Virus record (IMG/VR): IMGVR_UViG_3300037558_002627
Location: 1 to 7,481 of that record
Length of the DNA: 7,481 bases
Strand: one strand, 5' to 3'
Origin: a virus
Numbering within the stretch: the first letter of the stretch is position 1; the number at the start of each line of letters is the position of its first letter. The notes under the pieces are model-generated. The model was not told the DNA's origin, ran no database searches, and saw nothing but the letters and a program-made list of their open reading frames with translations. Of the stretch, positions 1 to 7,481 are shown in pieces. The position numbers and the translations under genes are program-made.

Positions 1-127
1 CATTATGCGAAGCCTAGGATGCACGGGAATGGCCTCACAGTGCCGCAGGCGGCGGGTTTACAAGCGGATTGTGGTTGGCGGTCTGCTGCACCGTTTCGCC
101 GGTCGACTCGCTACGCTCGCCACCGGC
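1..127. repeat. Left copy of the exact 127-nt terminal direct repeat (identical to 7355-7481); circular-contig overlap
   Basis: Base-by-base comparison shows 1-127 (cattatgcgaagcc...gctcgccaccggc) is identical to 7355-7481. Confidence 0.97.
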
Positions 128-1219
128 AAACGGCACAGCACCTAGCACGGATTCAGTCACGCCAACAGCCCGCGGGCCTGACCAGGGCGTGACCCATTCA
201 CCATTGAACTGGCAGCGATACTCCAGCCCGAGGCTAACCGGCTCGCAGTCGGCCATGGCCAGGTAAACCACACGCTGACCATCGCCGATCATGACCACGT
301 CGACCATATCGCCCTTGCCTGGCTCCAGGCGCTGCATATGCCCGGTAACACGCCAACGAAGCGACTCAACAGGCGCTTGAGGCTTTTCCCTAGCCTTGGG
401 CGCGGTAGCAACCAGCGGCGCAGACTGGAGCGTTTGCGGCGGCGGATTGGTTAGCACCAGTTCCTCGATAGGCTCAGGTTCCTTGACGGCGCCGAAGCCA
501 CTGGCAAACAGGCCGCTGACGTACCAGATACCCAGCGGAAACACGATGAACGGTGCCACGATGGAAAAGATCAAAAACGGAGAACGCCAGATAGTCGCCC
601 GCTTGTCCGCCCTGCTTTCGTCGCCTACATCGTCCGTTTGGCTCTTAGTTGCACTCTTGTAATAGAGCCAGACCTTTTCAGAGTAACTATCAAACGTCGA
701 GCGGATAAACTGCGTTTTCGGCGGGCGCTGACCTTTTGCAGCGCCCTCGTAAATATCAATGCGGAACTTGCCGGACGCGCCGACAGAATCAAGCTTGTGG
801 CTTTGATACGTCTTGTCGATCAATGTAAGGCAAAAGTGCGATAGCTGATCTAAGTCTTGAGTAACGAAAATAACCCGCGTTGTCTTGCCGTTGTCGCCGA
901 CGAGGTGGCCATGCTCAGCAAGAAAAGCCTTGTCCTTATGAGGGATCTTGTTTGCCGCCATGCCTTTCGGCCAGCGGCGCCAAAGTTCATCCAGCACGGC
1001 AACGCAACCAGGCGTGAAACTATCGAACAAATCGGCATCGTCGTACCACTTGTCATCTAACTGATGAATGAGCCCCGGAAACTCAACATGAGCCTTTTCG
1101 GTCAGCGGGATATTCGTGAAAACATGCCGCCCCTCTTTAAGGGACGGCAGGATCACATTCTTAACCACACTATAACTTTTGCCGGATCGCGGCCGTCCAG
1201 TATATGCATCGATAGCCAT
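35..1219 (-). CDS. gI: Assembly ATPase pI (Zot family), 394 aa
   Basis: ATG at 1219, 3 nt after the upstream stop. Walker A GRPRSGKS near the N-terminus, Walker-B-like VAVLDELW, and IFVTQDL resembling Ff pI IIFLVQDL (from memory). One TM segment (WRSPFLIFSIVAPFIVFPLGIWYVSGLF) followed by a Pro-rich periplasmic tail. Confidence 0.93.
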   Translation of the reverse strand: MAIDAYTGRPRSGKSYSVVKNVILPSLKEGRHVFTNIPLTEKAHVEFPGLIHQLDDKWYDDADLFDSFTPGCVAVLDELWRRWPKGMAANKIPHKDKAFLAEHGHLVGDNGKTTRVIFVTQDLDQLSHFCLTLIDKTYQSHKLDSVGASGKFRIDIYEGAAKGQRPPKTQFIRSTFDSYSEKVWLYYKSATKSQTDDVGDESRADKRATIWRSPFLIFSIVAPFIVFPLGIWYVSGLFASGFGAVKEPEPIEELVLTNPPPQTLQSAPLVATAPKAREKPQAPVESLRWRVTGHMQRLEPGKGDMVDVVMIGDGQRVVYLAMADCEPVSLGLEYRCQFNGEWVTPWSGPRAVGVTESVLGAVPFAGGERSESTGETVQQTANHNPLVNPPPAAL

Positions 1220-1222
1220 AAA

Positions 1223-1498
1223 TCACCCGATCAACGGAATACGGCGCAACAGGAAGCGCGCAATCAGTGCGGCCAAGATCATGGCAACACCTTCTGCAAT
1301 TGCGAACTTGCCCGCGAAGAACAGCACGGTGCTGGGAATACCGCCCATTGCGTTTTGAGCCTGATATACGAAGTCAGGCACCGGCAGTGCCTCAACAAAG
1401 CCAGCCAGTGAATCCATTAAATCCGCCCATATCTTTTTGGGCAGATACAGGAACAAGTCTTTTAACCACTCCGCAAACTTTTCAATGTATGACCACAT
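1223..1498 (-). CDS. gVI: Minor coat protein pVI-like, 91 aa (the ORF-track version 1223..1540 is probably an N-terminal over-extension)
   Basis: ATG at 1498 is preceded by GGAGG with a 7-nt spacer and lies 2 nt after the gIII stop. Hydrophobic protein ending ARFLLRRIPLIG, which I recall as typical of inovirus pVI-like (DUF2523-type) proteins. Position between gIII and gI. Confidence 0.75.
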   Translation of the reverse strand: MWSYIEKFAEWLKDLFLYLPKKIWADLMDSLAGFVEALPVPDFVYQAQNAMGGIPSTVLFFAGKFAIAEGVAMILAALIARFLLRRIPLIG

Positions 1499-1500
1499 AG

Positions 1501-2973
1501 TTATGCCTCCAGGAACACGCGAACAGCCGCCAATGCCCATATAGCAAGCATGACGTAATAAAGCGGGTCGAATAGATCAGCGTTCTGGCAAACCCAGTTA
1601 AACGAGATAGAGCCGATAACCGGGATAGTTGCACTGCCGAAGTTGCAAGAACCACCCGATGGCATGGCGATACCCTGGACAGCGGCAAAAACTGGGGAGT
1701 TGCCCGCCCTGGCGTAGAAAGAAGTCAGGGATTCGCCGAAGCCTGCAACCTCATCGTTGCCCGGTAGGTCGCCGCCAACCTCCTCTTCACCGCAATCAAC
1801 GATGCAATCGCCGTCGCCGGTTCCAGTACCATCGCCCTTACCAATGCCAGTACCGCACTTGGCTCCCTCGCACTTGGTCTCAGAGGACGTAGTATTGCCA
1901 TTGCCATCTTTGATAGTGACGTTTGTTGTCTTAGTCGTTACCGACTGGCAGGAATTAACACCAGTGCAGTTAACGTCTGTGCGTATATCCGTCTTAGTGG
2001 TGGTAGTACCACCATCAGGATTCGACTTTGTTTCGACCTTAGTGTCGATGCTGACACCATTGGAAGAAGGCTGTTTAGTGTAGTTGCAGTTCCACTCAGC
2101 ATTATTGAAAGAGCCACAATTGGTACTTTCACCGGGAACACCACGATAGTCAGACGACTGGCAGCTAACCATGCCCTCACCATCCGCATAGTAAGAACAC
2201 GGCTTGCGGTCAGTAATGACAGGCTCATCAGGAACGTCGCAAGATTCACCCTCTGGACAAACATCCGGAGAAGTAGCCGAAGGAACAAATGAAGGCGCAT
2301 CACCATCAGCAACTTCACCAGAGAAACTAACACCAACTTTACAACGCTGGGCAGGAGGGCCAAGAGTAATAGTTCCGGGTTTAGGAGTTGCCGGAGCCTT
2401 GCAATGCGAAACATCAATAACAGTAGCGACACAACCCTGCGAAATAACAGGAGGTGGCGGAATGGGATTGCCCTCACCGTCATATTCGACATAGACAGTT
2501 GTGGTACGGGTTGACTTAGACAAATGCTCGCATTGAGAAGGCTTGTCGGCATCATAGAAAGGAACACACTCACCTGATGCAGTGGTGATCTTGGGAATAG
2601 TTACACCAGCGATAACATGATCGCCGCACTTTTCACCGCCAGGCTCTTGAGGGGCCTCGCATCCGCCAGTGGTAGGATTATAAATGGAAGGCAGAGTGCA
2701 ACCAGATCCCTGCCTTACAACAGAATGCTGAGAAATAAAAACAGGACCCATATAGAGATAGCAGGCAGCAGTAGAGCCACCAGAATATTGAAGCTGATAT
2801 GTCCTGCCATTTTTGCTAGCAAGTTTAGAACAACTAGAATCAGGGGTCTCGCCCCTAGTTTGAGTATCAGAACCAATTTGCCAGTAGTAATCTTCAGCCA
2901 GCGAAACGCCAGAATAAAACGCCGACGAAAGAATCAGTATATACAACGCGATATAAAACCGAACCTTGCCCAT
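1501..2973 (-). CDS. gIII: Adsorption / minor coat protein pIII-like, 490 aa precursor
   Basis: First ATG is at 2973 (the track start at 2994 is TTG). Signal peptide MGKVRFYIALYILILSSAFYSGVSLA|EDYY. 24 Cys in the mature part, Pro-rich linkers (PIPPPPV, PATPKPG), a Gly-rich linker GTGIGKGDGTGTGDGD (1807-1854) and a C-terminal hydrophobic anchor LYYVMLAIWALAAVRVFLEA. Position after the coat gene. Confidence 0.85.
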   Translation of the reverse strand: MGKVRFYIALYILILSSAFYSGVSLAEDYYWQIGSDTQTRGETPDSSCSKLASKNGRTYQLQYSGGSTAACYLYMGPVFISQHSVVRQGSGCTLPSIYNPTTGGCEAPQEPGGEKCGDHVIAGVTIPKITTASGECVPFYDADKPSQCEHLSKSTRTTTVYVEYDGEGNPIPPPPVISQGCVATVIDVSHCKAPATPKPGTITLGPPAQRCKVGVSFSGEVADGDAPSFVPSATSPDVCPEGESCDVPDEPVITDRKPCSYYADGEGMVSCQSSDYRGVPGESTNCGSFNNAEWNCNYTKQPSSNGVSIDTKVETKSNPDGGTTTTKTDIRTDVNCTGVNSCQSVTTKTTNVTIKDGNGNTTSSETKCEGAKCGTGIGKGDGTGTGDGDCIVDCGEEEVGGDLPGNDEVAGFGESLTSFYARAGNSPVFAAVQGIAMPSGGSCNFGSATIPVIGSISFNWVCQNADLFDPLYYVMLAIWALAAVRVFLEA

Positions 2974-2974
2974 C

Positions 2975-3049
2975 TCACCACCCCCAAAAAACAACGCAGG
3001 CAGTTATTCCGCCCAAGAACAAAAAGATGGCCTCATAAAGTTCGAACAT
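2975..3049 (-). CDS. 24-aa hydrophobic micro-protein MFELYEAIFLFLGGITACVVFWGW (pVII/pIX-like tip protein or PfsE-like membrane peptide)
   Basis: Strong SD GAGGA 7 nt upstream of ATG 3049, immediately after the coat terminator. Its TGA lies 1 nt before the gIII ATG (TGAGATG). It is the tail of the implausible 86-aa track ORF 2975..3235. Confidence 0.5.
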   Translation of the reverse strand: MFELYEAIFLFLGGITACVVFWGW

Positions 3050-3062
3050 GGCGATTTCCTCG

Positions 3063-3089
3063 AATAAAAAAGGGGGCCTAAGCCCCCTT
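3063..3089 (-). terminator. Rho-independent terminator after the major coat gene
   Basis: Minus strand reads AAGGGGGC-TTAG-GCCCCCTT followed by TTTTATT. The 8-bp perfect stem is 3070-3077 / 3082-3089 with a 4-nt loop, 15 nt downstream of the coat stop. This is analogous to the post-gVIII terminator of Ff phages. Confidence 0.85.
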
Positions 3090-3104
3090 CCCAACTGGCC
3101 GTGA

Positions 3105-3239
3105 TTAGCGGCGAATAACCGACAGAAGCAGAGTGGCGCCTTTGATCGCCACGTAAGCCACAGCAAGCAGGCCTGCGATAGTGCCGATGCCGGTAGCGAT
3201 AGCAACGAAATCGACGTTTGCGAGTACGGCTTCAACCAT
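3105..3239 (-). CDS. gVIII: Major coat protein, 44 aa, no signal peptide: MVEAVLANVDFVAIATGIGTIAGLLAVAYVAIKGATLLLSVIRR
   Basis: Not in the supplied ORF track (below its length cut-off). ATG 3239 has AAGGGG 8 nt upstream and an in-frame TAA 5 codons upstream. Acidic N-terminus (E3, D10), a hydrophobic core of about 20 residues and a basic C-terminus (K33, R43, R44). Same size and layout as the Pf3 coat (44 aa, from memory). Overlaps the orf79 stop (ATGGTTGA) and is followed by a terminator. Confidence 0.85.
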   Translation of the reverse strand: MVEAVLANVDFVAIATGIGTIAGLLAVAYVAIKGATLLLSVIRR

Positions 3240-3471
3240 GAGAATTACCCCTTATTGCGTTAAGTAGAGCCTTGGCGCCGAGCCCCACGCTGATCGGCAC
3301 GGCACAGACCGTGAACCCAGCAGCGAAGGCCTTGACCAAGGCAGGAACGTCCAACGTTTCGACGCTGAACGGCTCAGGCATGGGGTAAAGCATCCACATG
3401 CCGGAACAAGAAGGAGCGCCGTCAGCGAGGATGCTGACAGTGCCCTGGCATACGAGCGTTACGAGTTCCAT
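3232..3471 (-). CDS. 79-aa small protein with C-terminal hydrophobic segment (possible minor coat or morphogenesis protein)
   Basis: ATG at 3471 (the track start 3474 is TTG) overlaps the upstream stop as TGATG. C-terminal AFAAGFTVCAVPISVGLGAKALL. Stop overlaps the coat start. Pyrimidine-ending codon usage like its neighbours. Confidence 0.6.
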   Translation of the reverse strand: MELVTLVCQGTVSILADGAPSCSGMWMLYPMPEPFSVETLDVPALVKAFAAGFTVCAVPISVGLGAKALLNAIRGNSHG

Positions 3472-3677
3472 CAAAGAGCCTCACCAGGGAGACACTGGCC
3501 CCGCTCAGCGAACCAGCAGCCAGGCTGACCACAAGAACAGATCGAGGCCGAATGACAGTCATCGCAAACGCGAAAATCAGGCGCCGGAAGCACGTCAGGA
3601 GCGCATGCAGGCTGATTCCAAAGCTGGCCCAGGAAGGCGCCGCAGAGGTCGCAGAAGCAACGGTCTAGAACGATCAT
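3471..3677 (-). CDS. 68-aa cysteine-rich protein (10 Cys; CxCxxC ... CxxCH ... CxC; zinc-ribbon-like)
   Basis: ATG 3677 lies 12 nt after the gV-like stop, and its stop is coupled to orf79 (TGATG). Codon usage matches neighbouring genes. Cys at positions 7, 9, 12, 25, 38, 41, 47, 49, 54 and 62. Confidence 0.6.
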   Translation of the reverse strand: MIVLDRCFCDLCGAFLGQLWNQPACAPDVLPAPDFRVCDDCHSASICSCGQPGCWFAERGQCLPGEAL

Positions 3678-3689
3678 GGCGCCCTACCC

Positions 3690-4037
3690 TTAGCTGGCAG
3701 CCTGGACGGCAGCAGCAGGCGGCTTGATTTGCATCTGGACGGGCTTGCGGTCGCCAGACAGCCAGAGGTCGTAACCAGCGTTCCCGGCCTTGGATGCCCA
3801 CGGACCGACGCGTACAGGAAGGCTAACGGCCTTGCCTTTGAGCTGGTCGTAAAGGTGCTGGATACCAGCTTCTACATCAGCTTTGGACAGCTTGATGCCG
3901 ATAGTTTTGGTCTCCTGGATGCCGTACTGATTGGTGTCTTGCACCTCAAGCAGGATCAGGTTGTCAGTGAACTGGTTGTTTCCAACGGTACGAGTGTTGG
4001 CTTTGAAGCCGTGGCACAGGCCGGTGAGCAGTAGCAT
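3690..4037 (-). CDS. Putative ssDNA-binding protein (gV-like by position), 115 aa
   Basis: ATG 4037 has GAGAGG upstream. Highly biased (expressed-type) codon usage. Position downstream of gII. Ala/Pro/Gln-rich C-terminal tail, as I recall for Pf1 gV. I see no direct similarity to M13 gV. Confidence 0.55.
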   Translation of the reverse strand: MLLLTGLCHGFKANTRTVGNNQFTDNLILLEVQDTNQYGIQETKTIGIKLSKADVEAGIQHLYDQLKGKAVSLPVRVGPWASKAGNAGYDLWLSGDRKPVQMQIKPPAAAVQAAS

Positions 4038-4040
4038 GGT

Positions 4041-4265
4041 TTACACCTCTCGGGGGGAACGTTGGGCCGGCTGGCCCGGTTGGGTAATCAGGAAAACGAG
4101 CTTGGGAAAAGGCATCGCCCAACGGGCAGCAAGCTGGATAGCTTGGCGGCGAGAAAAGGGGCCGTAGCAGCAGTATTGATTGGCAACTAACCATTGGCCT
4201 TGACTGCGAACAGCAGAAACACCAGAGCGAGCAGCACGTTGTTTGAGGACACGAAGACGGTTCAT
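4041..4265 (-). CDS. 74-aa basic protein of unknown function wedged between gII and the gV-like gene
   Basis: Its ATG (4265..4263) shares its A with the gII TGA (TGATG coupling), and its TAA lies 3 nt before the gV-like ATG. NNY-rich codons like the flanking genes. This is the 3' part of track ORF 4041..4412. Confidence 0.45.
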   Translation of the reverse strand: MNRLRVLKQRAARSGVSAVRSQGQWLVANQYCCYGPFSRRQAIQLAARWAMPFPKLVFLITQPGQPAQRSPREV

Positions 4266-4606
4266 CAGGCAGCCTCCACCGAAGGTTCGACGTACCAGTC
4301 CGGGCGCTGGGCGGAGAAGTCGACCTGCACGAAGCGCAGAAGCGGCACCACGTTGCCCTTGTCCACCTCGTGCAGCTTCTGCAAGGCGGCTTTCGAGAGG
4401 CCTGCCTCGCAAATTTCCGTTACGTGACGGTAAAAGGTGCGCTTGGCCATCGACTGCATAGTCTCGTCCCAGCCGTAATCCTTGATGCTGCGATAGGTGC
4501 GGAACAGGTTCCGGGCGTGGGAGTCGTTGGGCTGGCCTTTCCGGTCGTACTTCATGTGGCGTTCGGTCAGTGCGGCCAGCACTTTTTCGTCATCAATCTG
4601 TTTCAT
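4265..4606 (-). CDS. gX: Nested in-frame gX-like product (113 aa from Met297 of gII)
   Basis: Internal ATG at 4606 is preceded by GAAGG with a 7-nt spacer. FEGMTMKQIDDEKVLAAL aligns with M13 FEGDSMNIYDDSAVLDAI, where pX initiates (from memory). Confidence 0.5.
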   Translation of the reverse strand: MKQIDDEKVLAALTERHMKYDRKGQPNDSHARNLFRTYRSIKDYGWDETMQSMAKRTFYRHVTEICEAGLSKAALQKLHEVDKGNVVPLLRFVQVDFSAQRPDWYVEPSVEAA

Positions 4607-5494
4607 CGTCATACCTTCAAAGGCCGCAAAAATTGGAGCTGTGACCGCCTGCCAGCACTCTTGAATGAAGCAACGGCCCTCAACTGCAAGGGCCTGCTGG
4701 TGCGCGATCAGATCAACAAGCCGCGACGAGACGCCGCGACGCTCGAGCCAGCGGTGCATGACCGTGGCCTCGAACCGGAGCAGGTTTTTCGAGTGCTCCA
4801 GCAAGAGAGGGTTGCCCAGCACCTTGGCAGTGCGAGCAGCGGAAAGATCACCCCGCCCTGCCCGCTTCGCGTCATCGAGCTGGCGAAGAAATTCGGGATG
4901 CTTCAGATAGGCTTTCAGGCGCTTGAGGCGCGATTCTTTGGCGCCCCAATAGGCCGTTGTCTGATAGTTGTCGCCGCGCGCCTTGGTGGTGCCGTTGGAG
5001 GTGCCGCGCAAGGCGTCGATTACCTGCTGTGCGGTCCGCTCGTTGGGCATGCGCGCGCTGTAGGTACAGTCAAGGGCGTACACCTGGGAAGCCGAAACAT
5101 CGAGCATGGCGAACAACTTGGGATAGCTACCGGCGATCCACTTGAGCATCACCAAGGCGCCCTTTTCGATACAGGTTGGGCCAAACACGTTGTGGCCCTG
5201 GAGCAGCTTCGCCGGGCTGGCCTTGATCTCGACGCCGGGCATAAGCCGCTTTCCTAACGACTCGTGGAAAACCTTGAAGGCCAGCGGCGTAAAGCCGGTG
5301 GACAAGGATTCCCACGCATGGCGCAGGTAGTCAGCCTGTAGGCTGCCGTTTTCGTCCCTGCTGATTTGGCCCTGGAGAGGAATTTCCAGCAATTCAAGGT
5401 CAAAGTAGTGGACCGGTTCGGCTCGACCATCGACGCCCAAAAGCCGGATGTGCTCCAGCTTGAAGGGTACGAAAAGGTGGATTTTGTCGAGCAC
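4265..5494 (-). CDS. gII: Rolling-circle replication initiator, Ff gene II family (Phage_CRI-type), 409 aa, GTG start
   Basis: Long blocks match my recollection of M13 gpII (410 aa): VEIKASPAKLLQGHNVFG vs VEIKASPAKVLQGHNVFG, YLKHPEF vs YLKHVEL, and NVVPLLRFVQVDFSAQRPDWYVEP vs NVVPLVRFINVDFSSQRPDWYNEP. The codon at 5494..5492 is GTG, with AGGGA 9 nt upstream. Confidence 0.93.
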   Translation of the reverse strand: MLDKIHLFVPFKLEHIRLLGVDGRAEPVHYFDLELLEIPLQGQISRDENGSLQADYLRHAWESLSTGFTPLAFKVFHESLGKRLMPGVEIKASPAKLLQGHNVFGPTCIEKGALVMLKWIAGSYPKLFAMLDVSASQVYALDCTYSARMPNERTAQQVIDALRGTSNGTTKARGDNYQTTAYWGAKESRLKRLKAYLKHPEFLRQLDDAKRAGRGDLSAARTAKVLGNPLLLEHSKNLLRFEATVMHRWLERRGVSSRLVDLIAHQQALAVEGRCFIQECWQAVTAPIFAAFEGMTMKQIDDEKVLAALTERHMKYDRKGQPNDSHARNLFRTYRSIKDYGWDETMQSMAKRTFYRHVTEICEAGLSKAALQKLHEVDKGNVVPLLRFVQVDFSAQRPDWYVEPSVEAA

Positions 5495-5528
5495 GCTGGA
5501 AAATCCCTGTGCAAAAGTGATGTTGGCT

Positions 5529-5647
5529 AAAAATCACAAATGATGTTTTGTGACTTTATAGCTGAATCACACATGACATTGCAACACATGCAAAAATCAC
5601 GTCTGTCGGAAATCACGAATGATGGCGGAGTGAAATCACAGAAAATG
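5529..5647. promoter_or_regulatory. Iteron/operator field: five direct (A/G)AATCAC repeats plus one inverted copy in the divergent gII / RHH intergenic region
   Basis: TCAC cores at 5534, 5567, 5597, 5613 and 5636. AAATCACAAATGATG (5531-5545) and AAATCACGAATGATG (5610-5624) are 14/15 identical. Inverted copy TTTGTGACTT at 5547-5556. Confidence 0.7.
5555..5584 (-). promoter_or_regulatory. Candidate sigma70 promoter for gII (TTGCAA - 18 nt - TATAAA on the minus strand)
   Basis: -35 at 5579-5584 and -10 at 5555-5560 (plus-strand tttata), about 60 nt upstream of the gII GTG. The -10 lies between two inverted TCAC-core repeats. Motif match only. Confidence 0.3.
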
Positions 5648-5836
5648 GCCAAGACCTACAGATTGCGCGACGAAGCCGTGGAAGCCCTGAACGCAAAGAG
5701 AATCAAGCTGATCGTCGAGCGGAAAGAAGACGTGAAGGAGAGCGATCTGCTGGGGGCTTTGATCTGGAAGCACCTATCGACGCTGACAGCGCAGGACGTC
5801 AAGGCGTACCGGGAAACAGTGTTGGGGAAAGACTGA
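5645..5836 (+). CDS. 63-aa ribbon-helix-helix (Arc/CopG-like) DNA-binding protein, candidate repressor
   Basis: MAKTYRLRDEAVEALNAKR...VKESDLLGALIWKHL fits a strand-helix-turn-helix RHH pattern. Divergent from gII. The track's 98-aa form (5540 start) would translate through the iterons. No good SD, so the start is uncertain or the transcript leaderless. Confidence 0.65.
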   Translation: MAKTYRLRDEAVEALNAKRIKLIVERKEDVKESDLLGALIWKHLSTLTAQDVKAYRETVLGKD

Positions 5837-6024
5837 TGATCTGGGCGCTAGTGATAGCGACAACCATAAACGGCCCCGGAATCGATGCGGCGCAGTTTGA
5901 AAGCCGAGAACAGTGCAGAAGAGCCGCACTGATCATCGGTGAGATGGCGTATAGGACGGCCGTTGAAAGGGGCGGCGATGAAGAAGCCGCCGACATATAT
6001 GCCAGATGCGAAAAGCGCGAATAG
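5836..6024 (+). CDS. 62-aa protein with hydrophobic N-terminus and two Cys, unknown function
   Basis: ATG overlaps the RHH stop (TGATG), with GGGGA SD 7 nt upstream. Rare-codon rich (ATA, AGA, AGG), unlike the structural genes. An antisense minus-strand ORF also exists here (see rejected list). Confidence 0.5.
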   Translation: MIWALVIATTINGPGIDAAQFESREQCRRAALIIGEMAYRTAVERGGDEEAADIYARCEKRE

Positions 6025-6072
6025 TGCCACCGTGGCACAAAAGTCCACCATTAGAGTAGGTGGACTCTGATC
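6024..6072 (-). other. Ff-type plus-strand origin of replication (nick hairpin plus adjacent palindrome)
   Basis: Minus strand reads AGTCCACC-TACTCTAAT-GGTGGACT-TTTGTGCCACGGTGGCAC. The f1 core, as I recall it, is AGTCCAC-GTTCTTTAATA-GTGGACT-CTTGTTCCAAACTGGAACA. The 8-bp stem is 6042-6049 / 6059-6066 and the palindrome GTGCCAC-C-GTGGCAC is 6024-6038. Same strand as gII. Confidence 0.75.
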
Positions 6073-6221
6073 CCTCCCCGGTGCCCGGTCGCGGCGCCAA
6101 AGAATCAAAGCATGGCTTCGCCACTGGCCGCTGCGCGCCCATCGCAAATGTGCGGGTGTACCTCACGCGCATGAAAGAGAACGCCAACTAGAGCGAAAAG
6201 CGGGTTGGACAGTGAAGGGGC

Positions 6222-6326
6222 GGTACCGAAAACCGAAATCCTGGACGAAAGCTGAAGGCGATTTTGGTACCGTTTAGCGTCGACGTAGATCCTGGCCGGG
6301 AGCAAGATGCCGGCGAAGGCGGTACC
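6222..6326. promoter_or_regulatory. GGTACC-core palindrome array B (3 sites: 6222, 6266, 6321)
   Basis: Sites flanked by A/T runs and preceded by GAAGG(G)CG. Spacings are 44 and 55 bp. The first site begins 3 nt after the stop of the 123-aa RHH gene. Confidence 0.65.
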
Positions 6327-6329
6327 AAA

Positions 6330-6701
6330 TCAGGTGCGACCCTGGCGATTCAGGCGCGCCAGGAAATGGTCCATAGACTCATCGGCCTGGGGCAAGGTCT
6401 CCGGCTCGACGTGGTGCCGCAAACGCAACGGCGCAGTCTCTTTGGGTTGGAAAATATCGCCCTGACTCGCCACCTCAGCGAGCTGAATCGCAGCGTCACG
6501 TGCTGCTGCCAGGGTCTGCTGGTAGACCTTGGCTTGTTGCTTCAGCTCAGCAATCTCAGAACGCGCATGGCGCAGGTCAGCATCAAGGCGCAACGCCTGG
6601 CGAGCTGCATCAGCGAACGCTTTCGACGCGACACGCTCACCGGTGAAGGCAAACATCTTGGCGGCCAATTCGTCGTCGGCCTGGAACTTGACTAGCGGCA
6701 T
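6330..6701 (-). CDS. 123-aa RHH-like + coiled-coil protein (P3), paralog of P1
   Basis: ATG 6701 has GGAG 8 nt upstream and lies 2 nt after the P2 stop. N-terminus is LVKFQA (strand) - DDELAAKMFAFT (helix) - G21 - helix. ADLRHAR (41-47) begins a heptad-like helix. C-terminal tail of about 45 aa. Confidence 0.7.
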   Translation of the reverse strand: MPLVKFQADDELAAKMFAFTGERVASKAFADAARQALRLDADLRHARSEIAELKQQAKVYQQTLAAARDAAIQLAEVASQGDIFQPKETAPLRLRHHVEPETLPQADESMDHFLARLNRQGRT

Positions 6702-6703
6702 AT

Positions 6704-6934
6704 TCAGCGCTCCGGAAAGGCAGATTCAAAGAGGTCACAAACATCGTCGTCCTGATCACCCGACCAACAACCAGCGGCGTGAAGGCCAGCGAGAAAGTCA
6801 CCGAGTCGAACGGGCGAGATCAATCCACGCTCAAGGTCAGAGCAGTAATCATCAAGGCGCTCAACAGCAAGATGGCGATCACCAAGAAGCTGAGTAACGA
6901 GAGTGCGAAGACGAGCAAGCCTTACAGGTACCAT
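6704..6934 (-). CDS. 76-aa acidic orphan protein (P2), net charge about -6, no Lys
   Basis: ATG 6934 has GGAG 7 nt upstream (the track start 7012 is TTG). The ATG is fused to a GGTACC site (ATGGTACC). Tightly coupled to P3. NNT-rich codons. I recognise no family. Confidence 0.6.
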   Translation of the reverse strand: MVPVRLARLRTLVTQLLGDRHLAVERLDDYCSDLERGLISPVRLGDFLAGLHAAGCWSGDQDDDVCDLFESAFPER

Positions 6935-7057
6935 TTTAGTACTCCAGGATGTTCTGCAGGTGACAACAATGGTACCAAAACCATCGAGAGACAGCAAGCG
7001 CTTTGGTACCAAAATATCAACCAGGTGATCGAGCTCGAGGACTAAAAAGGTACCTTT
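6927..7057. promoter_or_regulatory. GGTACC-core palindrome array A (4 sites: 6927, 6971, 7005, 7049) filling the P1-P2 gap
   Basis: Perfect 12-bp palindromes TTTGGTACCAAA (7002-7013) and AAAGGTACCTTT (7046-7057). Spacings are 44, 34 and 44 bp. The outer sites overlap the P1 stop codon and the P2 start codon. Confidence 0.7.
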
Positions 7058-7286
7058 ACAACTCAGAGATCTGTTGCGCGATCAGTCGAAGGCGTTCGAC
7101 CAGGGCATCAAGTTCGGCTCCCTCTTGCTCTTGGCCAGCGAGGCGACGGCGAGCATCGCGAAGATCTGCGAGCAAAACAGGGTACTGAGAAAGGATCCAC
7201 TCGACGGCATCGGAGCCCTTGCGCCCTGGGGCGTACAGCTCGGCATCGCGGATGAGGTAGGAAGGTAGATCGAGGGGCTGTCGCAT
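7056..7286 (-). CDS. 76-aa RHH-like + coiled-coil protein (P1), Mnt-like architecture
   Basis: ATG 7286 has AGGGG 5 nt upstream. PLDLPS (strand) - YLIRDAELYA (helix) - G21RKGS - DAVEWILSQY (helix), then ADLRDAR (40-46) ...LDALVERLRLIAQQISEL coiled coil. Same geometry as P3. Confidence 0.65.
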   Translation of the reverse strand: MRQPLDLPSYLIRDAELYAPGRKGSDAVEWILSQYPVLLADLRDARRRLAGQEQEGAELDALVERLRLIAQQISEL

Positions 7287-7367
7287 AACGGCCCCTATGT
7301 TACGCGACGCCCGGAGCTACGCCAGTGTCCGGACGCCGCTCAACATAAGGGCGGCATTATGCGAAGC
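7278..7367 (-). other. Two inverted dif-like XerC/XerD sites forming a long imperfect hairpin (candidate folded attP and/or packaging signal)
   Basis: Minus strand 7367->7338 reads GCTTCGCATAA-TGCCGCCC-TTATGTTGAGC. Plus strand 7278->7305 reads CTGTCGCATAA-CGGCCC-CTATGTTACGC. In-register pairing gives 20 of 25 positions between 7291-7315 and 7328-7352, plus 8 bp between 7281-7288 and 7357-7364. Confidence 0.6.
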
Positions 7368-7481
7368 CTAGGATGCACGGGAATGGCCTCACAGTGCCGC
7401 AGGCGGCGGGTTTACAAGCGGATTGTGGTTGGCGGTCTGCTGCACCGTTTCGCCGGTCGACTCGCTACGCTCGCCACCGGC
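7355..7481. repeat. Right copy of the terminal overlap; 7389-7481 re-reads the 3' end of gI (not a second gene)
   Basis: Identical to 1-127. The gI stop codon at 35-37 corresponds to 7389-7391. Confidence 0.97.

Follow-up and report, generated by a model that had tools for sequence, protein, structure and literature searches.

The window analysed here, a stretch of viral DNA of 7,481 nucleotides (nt) that makes up positions 1 to 7,481 of IMG/VR record IMGVR_UViG_3300037558_002627, holds the genome of a small filamentous inovirus without an integrase. A hairpin at 7276–7368 is probably the attachment site of this phage and is built on the plan of CTXφ, i.e. it would be a CTX-type attP(+). Most likely, the XerC and XerD recombinases of the host insert the phage at the chromosomal dif site by way of this site in its folded, single-stranded DNA (ssDNA) form. 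The hairpin is made of two inverted dif-like sites, here called A and B, and relatives of the phage are integrated at dif through their own site A.

The window ends in a 127-nt copy of its own start, and from this terminal redundancy (1–127 and 7355–7481) it follows that the genome is circular and 7,354 nt long. The replication, structural and assembly genes all lie on the minus strand, and two small open reading frames (ORFs) beside rep have the opposite orientation. Since the packaged (+) strand of Inoviridae has the same polarity as the replication, structural and assembly genes, the packaged strand should be the minus strand of the window. A domain scan of all ORFs of the window turned up neither an integrase nor a recombinase. 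The hairpin and its parts are the following.

7276..7368, minus strand (packaged, gene-sense): whole attP(+)-like hairpin, 93 nt
7367->7338, minus strand: site A (attP1-like), GCTTCGCATAA-TGCCGCCC-TTATGTTGAGC
7357..7367, minus strand: XerC-binding arm of site A, GCTTCGCATAA, 10/11 against the XerC arm of PAO1 dif
7349..7356, minus strand: centre of site A, TGCCGCCC, 8 nt
7338..7348, minus strand: XerD-type arm of site A, TTATGTTGAGC, 8/11 against dif
7278-7305, plus strand: site B (attP2-like), in the opposite orientation to site A, CTGTCGCATAA-CGGCCC-CTATGTTACGC
7278-7288, plus strand: XerC arm of site B, CTGTCGCATAA
7289-7294, plus strand: centre of site B, CGGCCC, 6 nt
7295-7305, plus strand: XerD-type arm of site B, CTATGTTACGC
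7306..7337, minus strand: upper stem and apical loop (GCGGCGTCCGGAC ACTGGCGTAG CTCCGGGCGTCGC region)

An initial annotation, made from the DNA alone, had proposed a site on the minus strand (7367->7338) that matches the XerC and XerD arms of Escherichia coli dif at 9/11 and 8/11 positions around an 8-nt centre, together with an inverted copy with a 6-nt centre at 7278–7305, and both are present. Against the dif site of Pseudomonas aeruginosa PAO1 (GATTCGCATAATGTATATTATGTTAAAT; Carnoy & Roten, PMC2731167) site A scores 18/22, a value reached by 1 of 300 shuffled genomes when either strand and spacers of 6–8 nt were allowed. The centre of site A starts with TG, the same as the first two bases of the dif centre TGTATA, and the CC at 7354–7353 within it is the bulge of the fold; cleavage by XerC, and with it the crossover, is predicted between 7357 and 7356 of the minus strand. 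The arms of site B are weak (7/11 and 7/11 against dif), and the reverse complement of this site forms the bottom strand of the hairpin. The 15-nt core of Xanthomonas phages that the initial annotation had used for comparison, TATACATTATGCGAA, matches the one in the XacF1 paper (PMC4076744), and the window shares 11 of its 15 nt; the core is simply the reverse complement of the end of the dif XerC arm plus the centre.

It had also been said, correctly, that the hairpin comes after the last morphogenesis gene. The stop codon of zot at 35–37, equivalent to 7389–7391 through the terminal redundancy, stands 20 nt before the hairpin base on the packaged strand, and both dif-like sites lie at least 20 nt past it, inverted, ~90 nt apart and intergenic. 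The redundancy, which arose when a circular molecule was assembled, has one end inside site A; the XerC arm and first two centre bases of this site thus recur at window positions 1–13, with the bases of the arm itself at 3–13.

On the packaged strand the hairpin is ordered as a 14-base-pair (bp) XerC-arm stem (7276–7290/7355–7368), a 2-nt CC bulge, a duplex of centre and XerD arm in which G·T wobbles and a single A/G mismatch occur, an upper stem of 12 bp and an apical loop of 12 nt. The XerC arms pair as had been claimed, with 8/8 Watson–Crick pairs between 7281–7288 and 7357–7364. For 7291–7315 with 7328–7352 the claim had been 20 of 25 positions, which is the count for the plus strand (20/25); on the minus strand four G·T pairs join the 20 Watson–Crick pairs. 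Calculation of the ssDNA fold bears out the hairpin, with a minimum free energy of -32.5 kcal/mol (z -4.44) on the minus strand that none of 200 shuffles equalled, and the plus strand folds more weakly (-27.0 kcal/mol, z -2.36).

Relatives of the phage were gathered via Zot and by exact-protein look-ups, which gave about 190 loci of related phages and prophages. Defined as CGCATAA, 30–200 nt and TTATGCG, usually right after zot, 41 distinct hairpins of the same build were found among them, and in 38 of these the zot-sense strand folds better (mean difference in folding free energy -4.0 kcal/mol, Wilcoxon p 9e-8). In a covariation alignment of 17 hairpins of the ~100-nt class, 97.4% of the cells are paired, a share that falls to 81.6% in shuffles and to 31–44% when the partners are slid. 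Compensatory changes occur in 16 of the 30 stem pairs, some of them inside the centre and the XerD arm, and 0/500 shuffles reach any of these measures. The upper stem (helix 3 of alignment A2) has such changes in 9 of 11 pairs, its sequence being variable and its pairing kept. The pairing cells that are not Watson–Crick comprise 42 G·T and 0 A·C on the sense strand, which argues that the structure is selected in a sense-strand nucleic acid (ssDNA or RNA) and not as a duplex palindrome. These substitution patterns show that the hairpin fold is under selection on the sense strand, and a covariance model of the ~100-nt class scores the window at 88.1 bits on the minus strand vs 43.9 on the plus strand.

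The centre of site B is 6 nt long in 36 of the 41 hairpins. That of site A spans 7–13 nt across the family, mostly 10–11 and in most members 9–13, and with 8 nt the window has the second shortest. A 6-nt site A centre followed by an XerD arm TGACGTTACGT was considered for the relatives and rejected, as the alignment gives the XerD arm TTACGTTTAAT and a centre of 9–11 nt. Another member of the family, found by the covariance model at L013:8071-8169, has changed in both XerC arms, which read GCCATAA/TTATGGC; it lies ~1.9 kb upstream of zot, an unusual position, and its arms suggest that it has adapted to a host whose dif has another XerC arm. The model recovers the forked hairpins of P. aeruginosa weakly (L190 and L043, 32–34 bits) and gave no match to the CTXφ attP, so that it underestimates how prevalent such structures are.

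The integrated relatives reveal where phage and chromosome are joined. Their left junction (attL) consists of the host XerC arm, the site A centre and the rest of the hairpin, and their right junction (attR) of the phage XerC arm, the dif centre and the XerD arm, a structure that places the crossover at the border between the XerC arm and the centre of site A, on the sense strand. The whole site A centre is found in attL and the whole dif centre is always kept in attR, the latter as predicted by an XerC-only exchange of the top strand followed by replication; at every junction the only product seen is that of the top strand (XerC side). Prophage copies next to dif, as the initial annotation had envisaged, were thus found in relatives, L111 among them. 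This nearest integrated relative has a Zot 94% identical to that of the window, with about 89% nt identity over pVI-zot, and it ends in GCTTCGCATAA-TGTATA-TTATGTTAAAT (attR), followed by unrelated DNA. The leftmost copy in L103 starts with the dif arm of PAO1, GATTCGCATAA, joined to the site A centre (attL); the internal copies start with GCTTCGCATAA, and the array ends in GCTTCGCATAA-TGTATA-TTATGTTAAAC (attR). L007, L046, L050, L138 and L028 are built alike, each with the arm of its own host and with TGTATA or TCTATA as dif centre, and attL/attR of the dif type also occur in L008–L010 and L101. In 11 of 11 prophages the first two centre bases (TG or TC) are common to site A or site B and the host dif; compared with TGTATA, the window has TG in site A and CG in site B (a T·G wobble and a G-C pair). 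Site B as a duplex attP was rejected, as it would put zot beside attL in the opposite orientation and all junctions run zot, site A XerC arm, dif.

Tandem arrays are common (L007, L009/L010, L101, L103, L105 and L178). In that of Pseudomonas anguilliseptica the sequence ...GAGGCTTCGCATAA has three different right-hand partners, namely its own hairpin, the hairpin of another phage, and TGTATA-TTATGTTAAGT followed by the chromosome. This array (L008–L010; CP156749.1, about 995–1047 kb) comprises at least seven tandem inovirus prophages of at least two types at dif, is broken by an IS66 element, and contains one junction in which the XerC arm of one phage type is followed by the hairpin of another. 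Site A of one of its prophages (L009:11262-11291) reads GCTTCGCATAA-TTCAGGGA-TTATGGTGCTT, and its centre and XerD arm seem to resemble the ColE1 cer site (TTAAGGGA-TTATGGTAAAT).

The mechanism that we propose would start on the circular (+) single strand (the window minus strand), where site A would pair with the reverse complement of site B to give a perfect XerC-arm duplex, a centre whose top strand has 8 nt and whose bottom strand has 6, and an XerD-arm duplex held partly by G·T pairs. Host XerC and XerD would bind the folded site and bring it into synapse with chromosomal dif; XerC would then cut the top strand after ...CGCATAA and swap it with the top strand of dif, the TG common to both beside the cut stabilizing the exchange. 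Replication would turn the resulting pseudo-Holliday junction into a prophage. At attL the host XerC arm would be followed by the phage hairpin region, with a duplex centre that is over-long and inactive, and at attR the phage XerC arm, the dif centre and the XerD arm would form a working dif that the next phage could reuse, which would produce the tandem arrays. New phage genomes would arise from rolling-circle replication, not from excision. XerC would be the only catalyst, and integration would be irreversible. For the window phage itself, which presumably integrates in the same way, the expected junctions would be a non-phage XerC arm joined to TGCCGCCCTTATGTTGAGC (attL) and ...GGCTTCGCATAA joined to TGTATATTATGTTAAAT (attR). 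That a folded Xer site would explain the missing integrase, as had been suggested at the outset, is supported by the layout, the covariation, the wobble bias and the dif junctions of the relatives.

Several observations weigh against this mechanism. An exact viral-contig search for the site A of the window found no integrated copy of this very phage, and the window, like its twins L001 and L002, is a free or circular form. No hairpin can be recognized in most zot relatives at a greater distance, so that only part of the clade has the device, and a strict regular-expression count of post-zot regions gave many distant relatives with neither hairpin nor dif junction. The wobble bias on the sense strand fits mRNA structure equally well, and the site A centre of the window pairs nearly fully with site B, with a 2-nt bulge left. 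The junction sequences, moreover, are alike for entry of ssDNA and entry of duplex site A, and with its 8-nt centre duplex site A could work alone in the window phage. This last possibility is the main rival, in which site A would act by itself in the double-stranded replicative form, in the manner of VGJ or cer, and site B and the hairpin would serve another purpose or be a relic. The relatives' junctions are exactly those that recombination at a duplex site A would also give, and site A of the window combines its 8-nt centre, non-canonical for a dif duplex, with arms of 10/11 (XerC) and 8/11 (XerD), those of site B being 7/11 and 7/11. An 8-nt spacer is tolerated by XerCD at plasmid cer. The VGJ-type phages integrate through a duplex site (PMC4246890), but they have one site, and the site A centre of most relatives, at 9–13 nt, exceeds what a duplex Xer site allows, and still they integrate at the same point. 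The centre of site B is constant at 6 nt and covaries with site A through centre and XerD arm, both XerC arms changed together in L013, and wobbles confined to the sense strand (42 vs 0) would be unexpected of a duplex site. Weakened by the long centres of the relatives and by a conserved, covarying site B, duplex entry is unlikely, and we infer that the substrate is the ssDNA fold.

A packaging signal and/or complementary-strand origin, like those of the Ff phages, would also fit the (+) strand and the position directly after the last morphogenesis gene, where Ff has its packaging signal; the phage would then be episomal and its likeness to dif a vestige of integrating ancestors. The recurring apical motif (GGA-N-AAT...GCTCC) is not explained by Xer binding, the window is a circular free form, and for PMBT54, a distant relative, the authors assumed non-integrative, episomal replication (PMC10534721). 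As a substitute for attachment such a role is nevertheless improbable, given that the XerC arm, the adjoining TG and the two XerD-type arms are all intact and are constrained just as they are in the integrated relatives, and that the close relative L111 is integrated; it is compatible with attachment, and the two may coexist. Highly improbable as a full account is an RNA element, a stem-loop of the zot-operon transcript that would act as terminator, stabilizer or translational gate for an ORF of 76 amino acids (aa). Although G·U pairs would form in sense RNA too and in many relatives this ORF has its ATG within the stem, the hairpin has no U-tract, a scan for terminators and promoters around it was negative, and the whole window has no Rfam family at E ≤ 1. 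L003, L033 and L056 keep the hairpin without a start codon in the stem, and the dif-like arms, the fixed 6-nt centre of site B and the crossover at site A would be left unexplained by a transcript structure. As a further function beside attachment, a role of the in-stem start codon at the RNA level is possible.

The ORF concerned runs from inside the hairpin.

7286->7056, minus strand: conserved 76-aa ORF (phrog_13909, E 9.6e-21), start ATG-CGA

A start codon of 'P1' within an XerC-like arm was part of the initial annotation, and the ATG is indeed there, in TTATGCGA of the reverse complement of site B; P1 is the 76-aa ORF and not pI/Zot (1219->35). Twenty-two of the 41 relatives have an ORF of at least 60 aa that starts at the ATG internal to this arm, about 16 of them (by eye) with a protein of the MR..LYAPGR type. 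Four of these (L034, L109, L033 and L178) are recovered by phmmer at E ≤ 1e-3, and the family of 76–81-aa proteins has the motif LYAPGR..DAV...DYP. Searches of Pfam, NCBIfam and PDB sequences with the 76-aa ORF gave only noise, and for its AlphaFold2 model, of three helices, neither PDB nor BFVD gave a significant match in fold. The apical part of the hairpin carries the motif GG(G)A-N-AAT...(A)GC(T)CC in about 30 of the 41 hairpins, even in the Cellvibrionaceae prophages L024 and L028, and the apical stem-loop of the window (7306–7337) has the variant GGACACTGGCGTAGCTCC. These features could be drawn together in a three-in-one module, a bold reading that we think unlikely to hold. The Xer att site would be combined with an apical stem-loop for packaging or as complementary-strand origin and with a 76-aa start gated by ssDNA/mRNA folding, and the protein could be a novel factor that assists Xer or assembly, comparable to XafT/XafV or PSB15. 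The complementary defects of the XerD arms (G at position 8 of the top and C at position 9 of the bottom strand) would then be a general 'split-site' design, in which dif-like contacts are rebuilt in the heteroduplex only.

The remaining genes that could be named are these.

5494->4265, minus strand: Rep (Phage_CRI + G2P_X_C)
4037->3690, minus strand: ssDNA-binding protein, G5P-like
3239->3105, minus strand: coat protein, 44 aa
2994->1501, minus strand: adsorption protein, about 490 aa
1540->1223, minus strand: pVI-like protein, DUF2523 (weak Pfam match, under the curated cut-off)
1219->35, minus strand: zot/pI assembly ATPase, last morphogenesis gene (Pfam Zot PF05707, E 1.8e-18)

The only domains found in the ORF scans were those of Rep (Phage_CRI/G2P_X_C), the G5P-like ssDNA-binding protein, Zot and the weakly matched DUF2523 (pVI-like). 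By Zot, the closest named relatives are the P. aeruginosa phage 36-2 (37%) and PMBT54 (36%). A search of deposited phages for near-identical DNA gave only a 47-nt match, outside the hairpin, to Pseudomonas phage 5a-DAzarov (PQ758391). This stretch (6019–6065) is 91.5% identical to that phage, whose genome is otherwise unrelated, contains the inverted repeat GTCCACC-ATTAGAGTA-GGTGGAC and, among the fetched loci, occurs only in the twins L001 and L002; it may be a replication origin or other cis element. The palindrome GGTACC is present in seven copies, often as TTTGGTACCAAAA, in two clusters (6222–6326 and 6927–7054) that flank the small-ORF block. The chance expectation is 0.9 copies and 0/200 shuffles reach 7, and the clusters look like operator sites for a phage regulator. 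The divergent promoter region between the start of rep (5494, minus strand) and an 87-aa ORF of opposite orientation (5573–5836, plus strand, phrog_5219) has three to five direct repeats AATCAC(A/G)NATGA at 5510–5647, which are candidates for operators or for iterons of an origin.

With its relatives, the window hairpin would add a large set of phages with a CTX-type attP(+), unrecognized in Pseudomonas-group inoviruses in the literature searched. No description of such hairpins in Pseudomonas phages was found in that literature, outside of which most subscription journals lie, so that an earlier report is possible. Integration through a folded Xer site in ssDNA has until now been linked with CTXφ/RS1 and, by inference, with CUS-1/Ypf; among integrative mobile elements exploiting Xer (IMEX), the CTX-type members listed beside CTXφ are only RS1, YpfΦ and CUS-1Φ (PMC4246890). 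The same design spans genomes of Pseudomonas, Stutzerimonas and Cellvibrionaceae as well as marine metagenomes. Its carriers include the integrase-less Pf prophages of P. aeruginosa isolates from cystic fibrosis, for which the route of integration had been left open. For annotation, the junctions give exact prophage boundaries (attL as host arm plus hairpin, attR as rebuilt dif), and the mechanism would explain the 'tandem' inovirus arrays of Pseudomonas and predicts irreversible lysogeny. The natural attP(+) variants, more than 40 in number and with 7–13 nt over 6 nt in their centres, are also a resource for the rules of Xer recombination on folded DNA.

Of the known phages that use Xer, the Xanthomonas phages Cf1c, phiLf and XacF1 have the end of the XerC arm, TTCGCATAA, plus TG in common with the window, because the dif sites of Xanthomonas and Pseudomonas are alike. 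XacF1 integrates at dif in an XerCD-dependent manner (PMC4076744), and Cf1c and phiLf are classed as TLC-type duplex integration (PMC4246890). These phages have one site with the full dif centre TGTATA, whereas the window has 11 of the 15 core nt, a non-dif centre and an inverted partner site. Assignment of the window to the TLC type (a dif-like XerC arm and centre, no XerD arm, and a first exchange by XerD before a second by XerC) was rejected, as its centre is non-dif beyond TG, both of its sites have XerD-type arms, and the junctions of the relatives show the XerC-side product alone. The VGJφ-type phages (VGJ, VEJ, VSK and fs2) resemble the window family in their integrase-free entry at dif, an XerC-catalysed first strand exchange and the same form of junction, and their XerC arm ACTTCGCAT-A resembles GCTTCGCATAA of the window. 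They differ in having a single 29-bp site with a 7-nt centre that is reversible and used as a duplex, in contrast to two covarying inverted sites with a top-strand centre of 7–13 nt.

The integrase-less Pf groups 4–7 of P. aeruginosa (e.g. Pf 36-2, OR621019) share the gene order of the window, with 37% identity in Zot. The record of Pf 36-2 starts and ends with TTCGCATAATGT and has a forked hairpin at its left end, made of site A and the reverse complement of site B; this phage is distant, and its hairpin is larger (122–128 nt) as well as forked. For these groups Evseev et al. (2023) suggested only 'host-encoded integrases', and neither dif nor the hairpin was identified (PMC10675462).

The closest counterpart of the window hairpin is that of CTXφ. 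The centres of CTXφ attP1 and attP2 are 12 nt and 5–7 nt long, and neither site is active as a duplex (PMC4246890; PMC3089051); its XerD arms are TTATGTTGAGG in attP1 and TTATGTTACGG in attP2 (PMC3089051). A CTXφ record is ordered ctxB, sense-strand attP1, about 90 nt, the reverse complement of attP2, rstR and rstA. Both phages are without an integrase and have two inverted dif-like sites, ~90 nt apart, between the last sense-strand gene and the regulatory/replication module, with the long-centre site on the (+) strand and the short-centre site inverted. In both, a perfect XerC-arm duplex is followed by a longer top-strand centre and an XerD-arm duplex with the same G·T and A/G irregularities. 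Between the two phages the XerD arms hardly differ (TTATGTTGAG-/-TATGTTACG-), TTATGTTGAGC of the window matching TTATGTTGAGG at 10/11 positions and CTATGTTACGC matching TTATGTTACGG at 9/11. The sense strand folds better by about 5.5 kcal/mol in each, at -45.1 vs -39.4 kcal/mol for CTXφ and -32.5 vs -27.0 for the window, and the attL, attR and tandem arrays of the window's relatives are as in CTX prophages.

The two phages differ in their host group, which for the window is Pseudomonas and related Gammaproteobacteria, and accordingly in the XerC arm, which in the window fits a Pseudomonas-type dif, with TTCGCATAA instead of TGCGTATTA. The window hairpin is unforked, 93 nt long and nearly fully paired in its 8/6-nt centre, whereas that of CTXφ is forked, about 150 nt long and has a larger bubble of 12/7 nt. 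There is no detectable homology outside the Xer arms, the identity of Zot to vibrio phages is below 30%, the window is without toxin genes, and its conserved small ORF starts inside the attP2-like arm. The resemblance to CTXφ attP(+) proposed in the initial annotation is nevertheless upheld, in the same layout and fold architecture, the same strand bias and the near-identical XerD arms.

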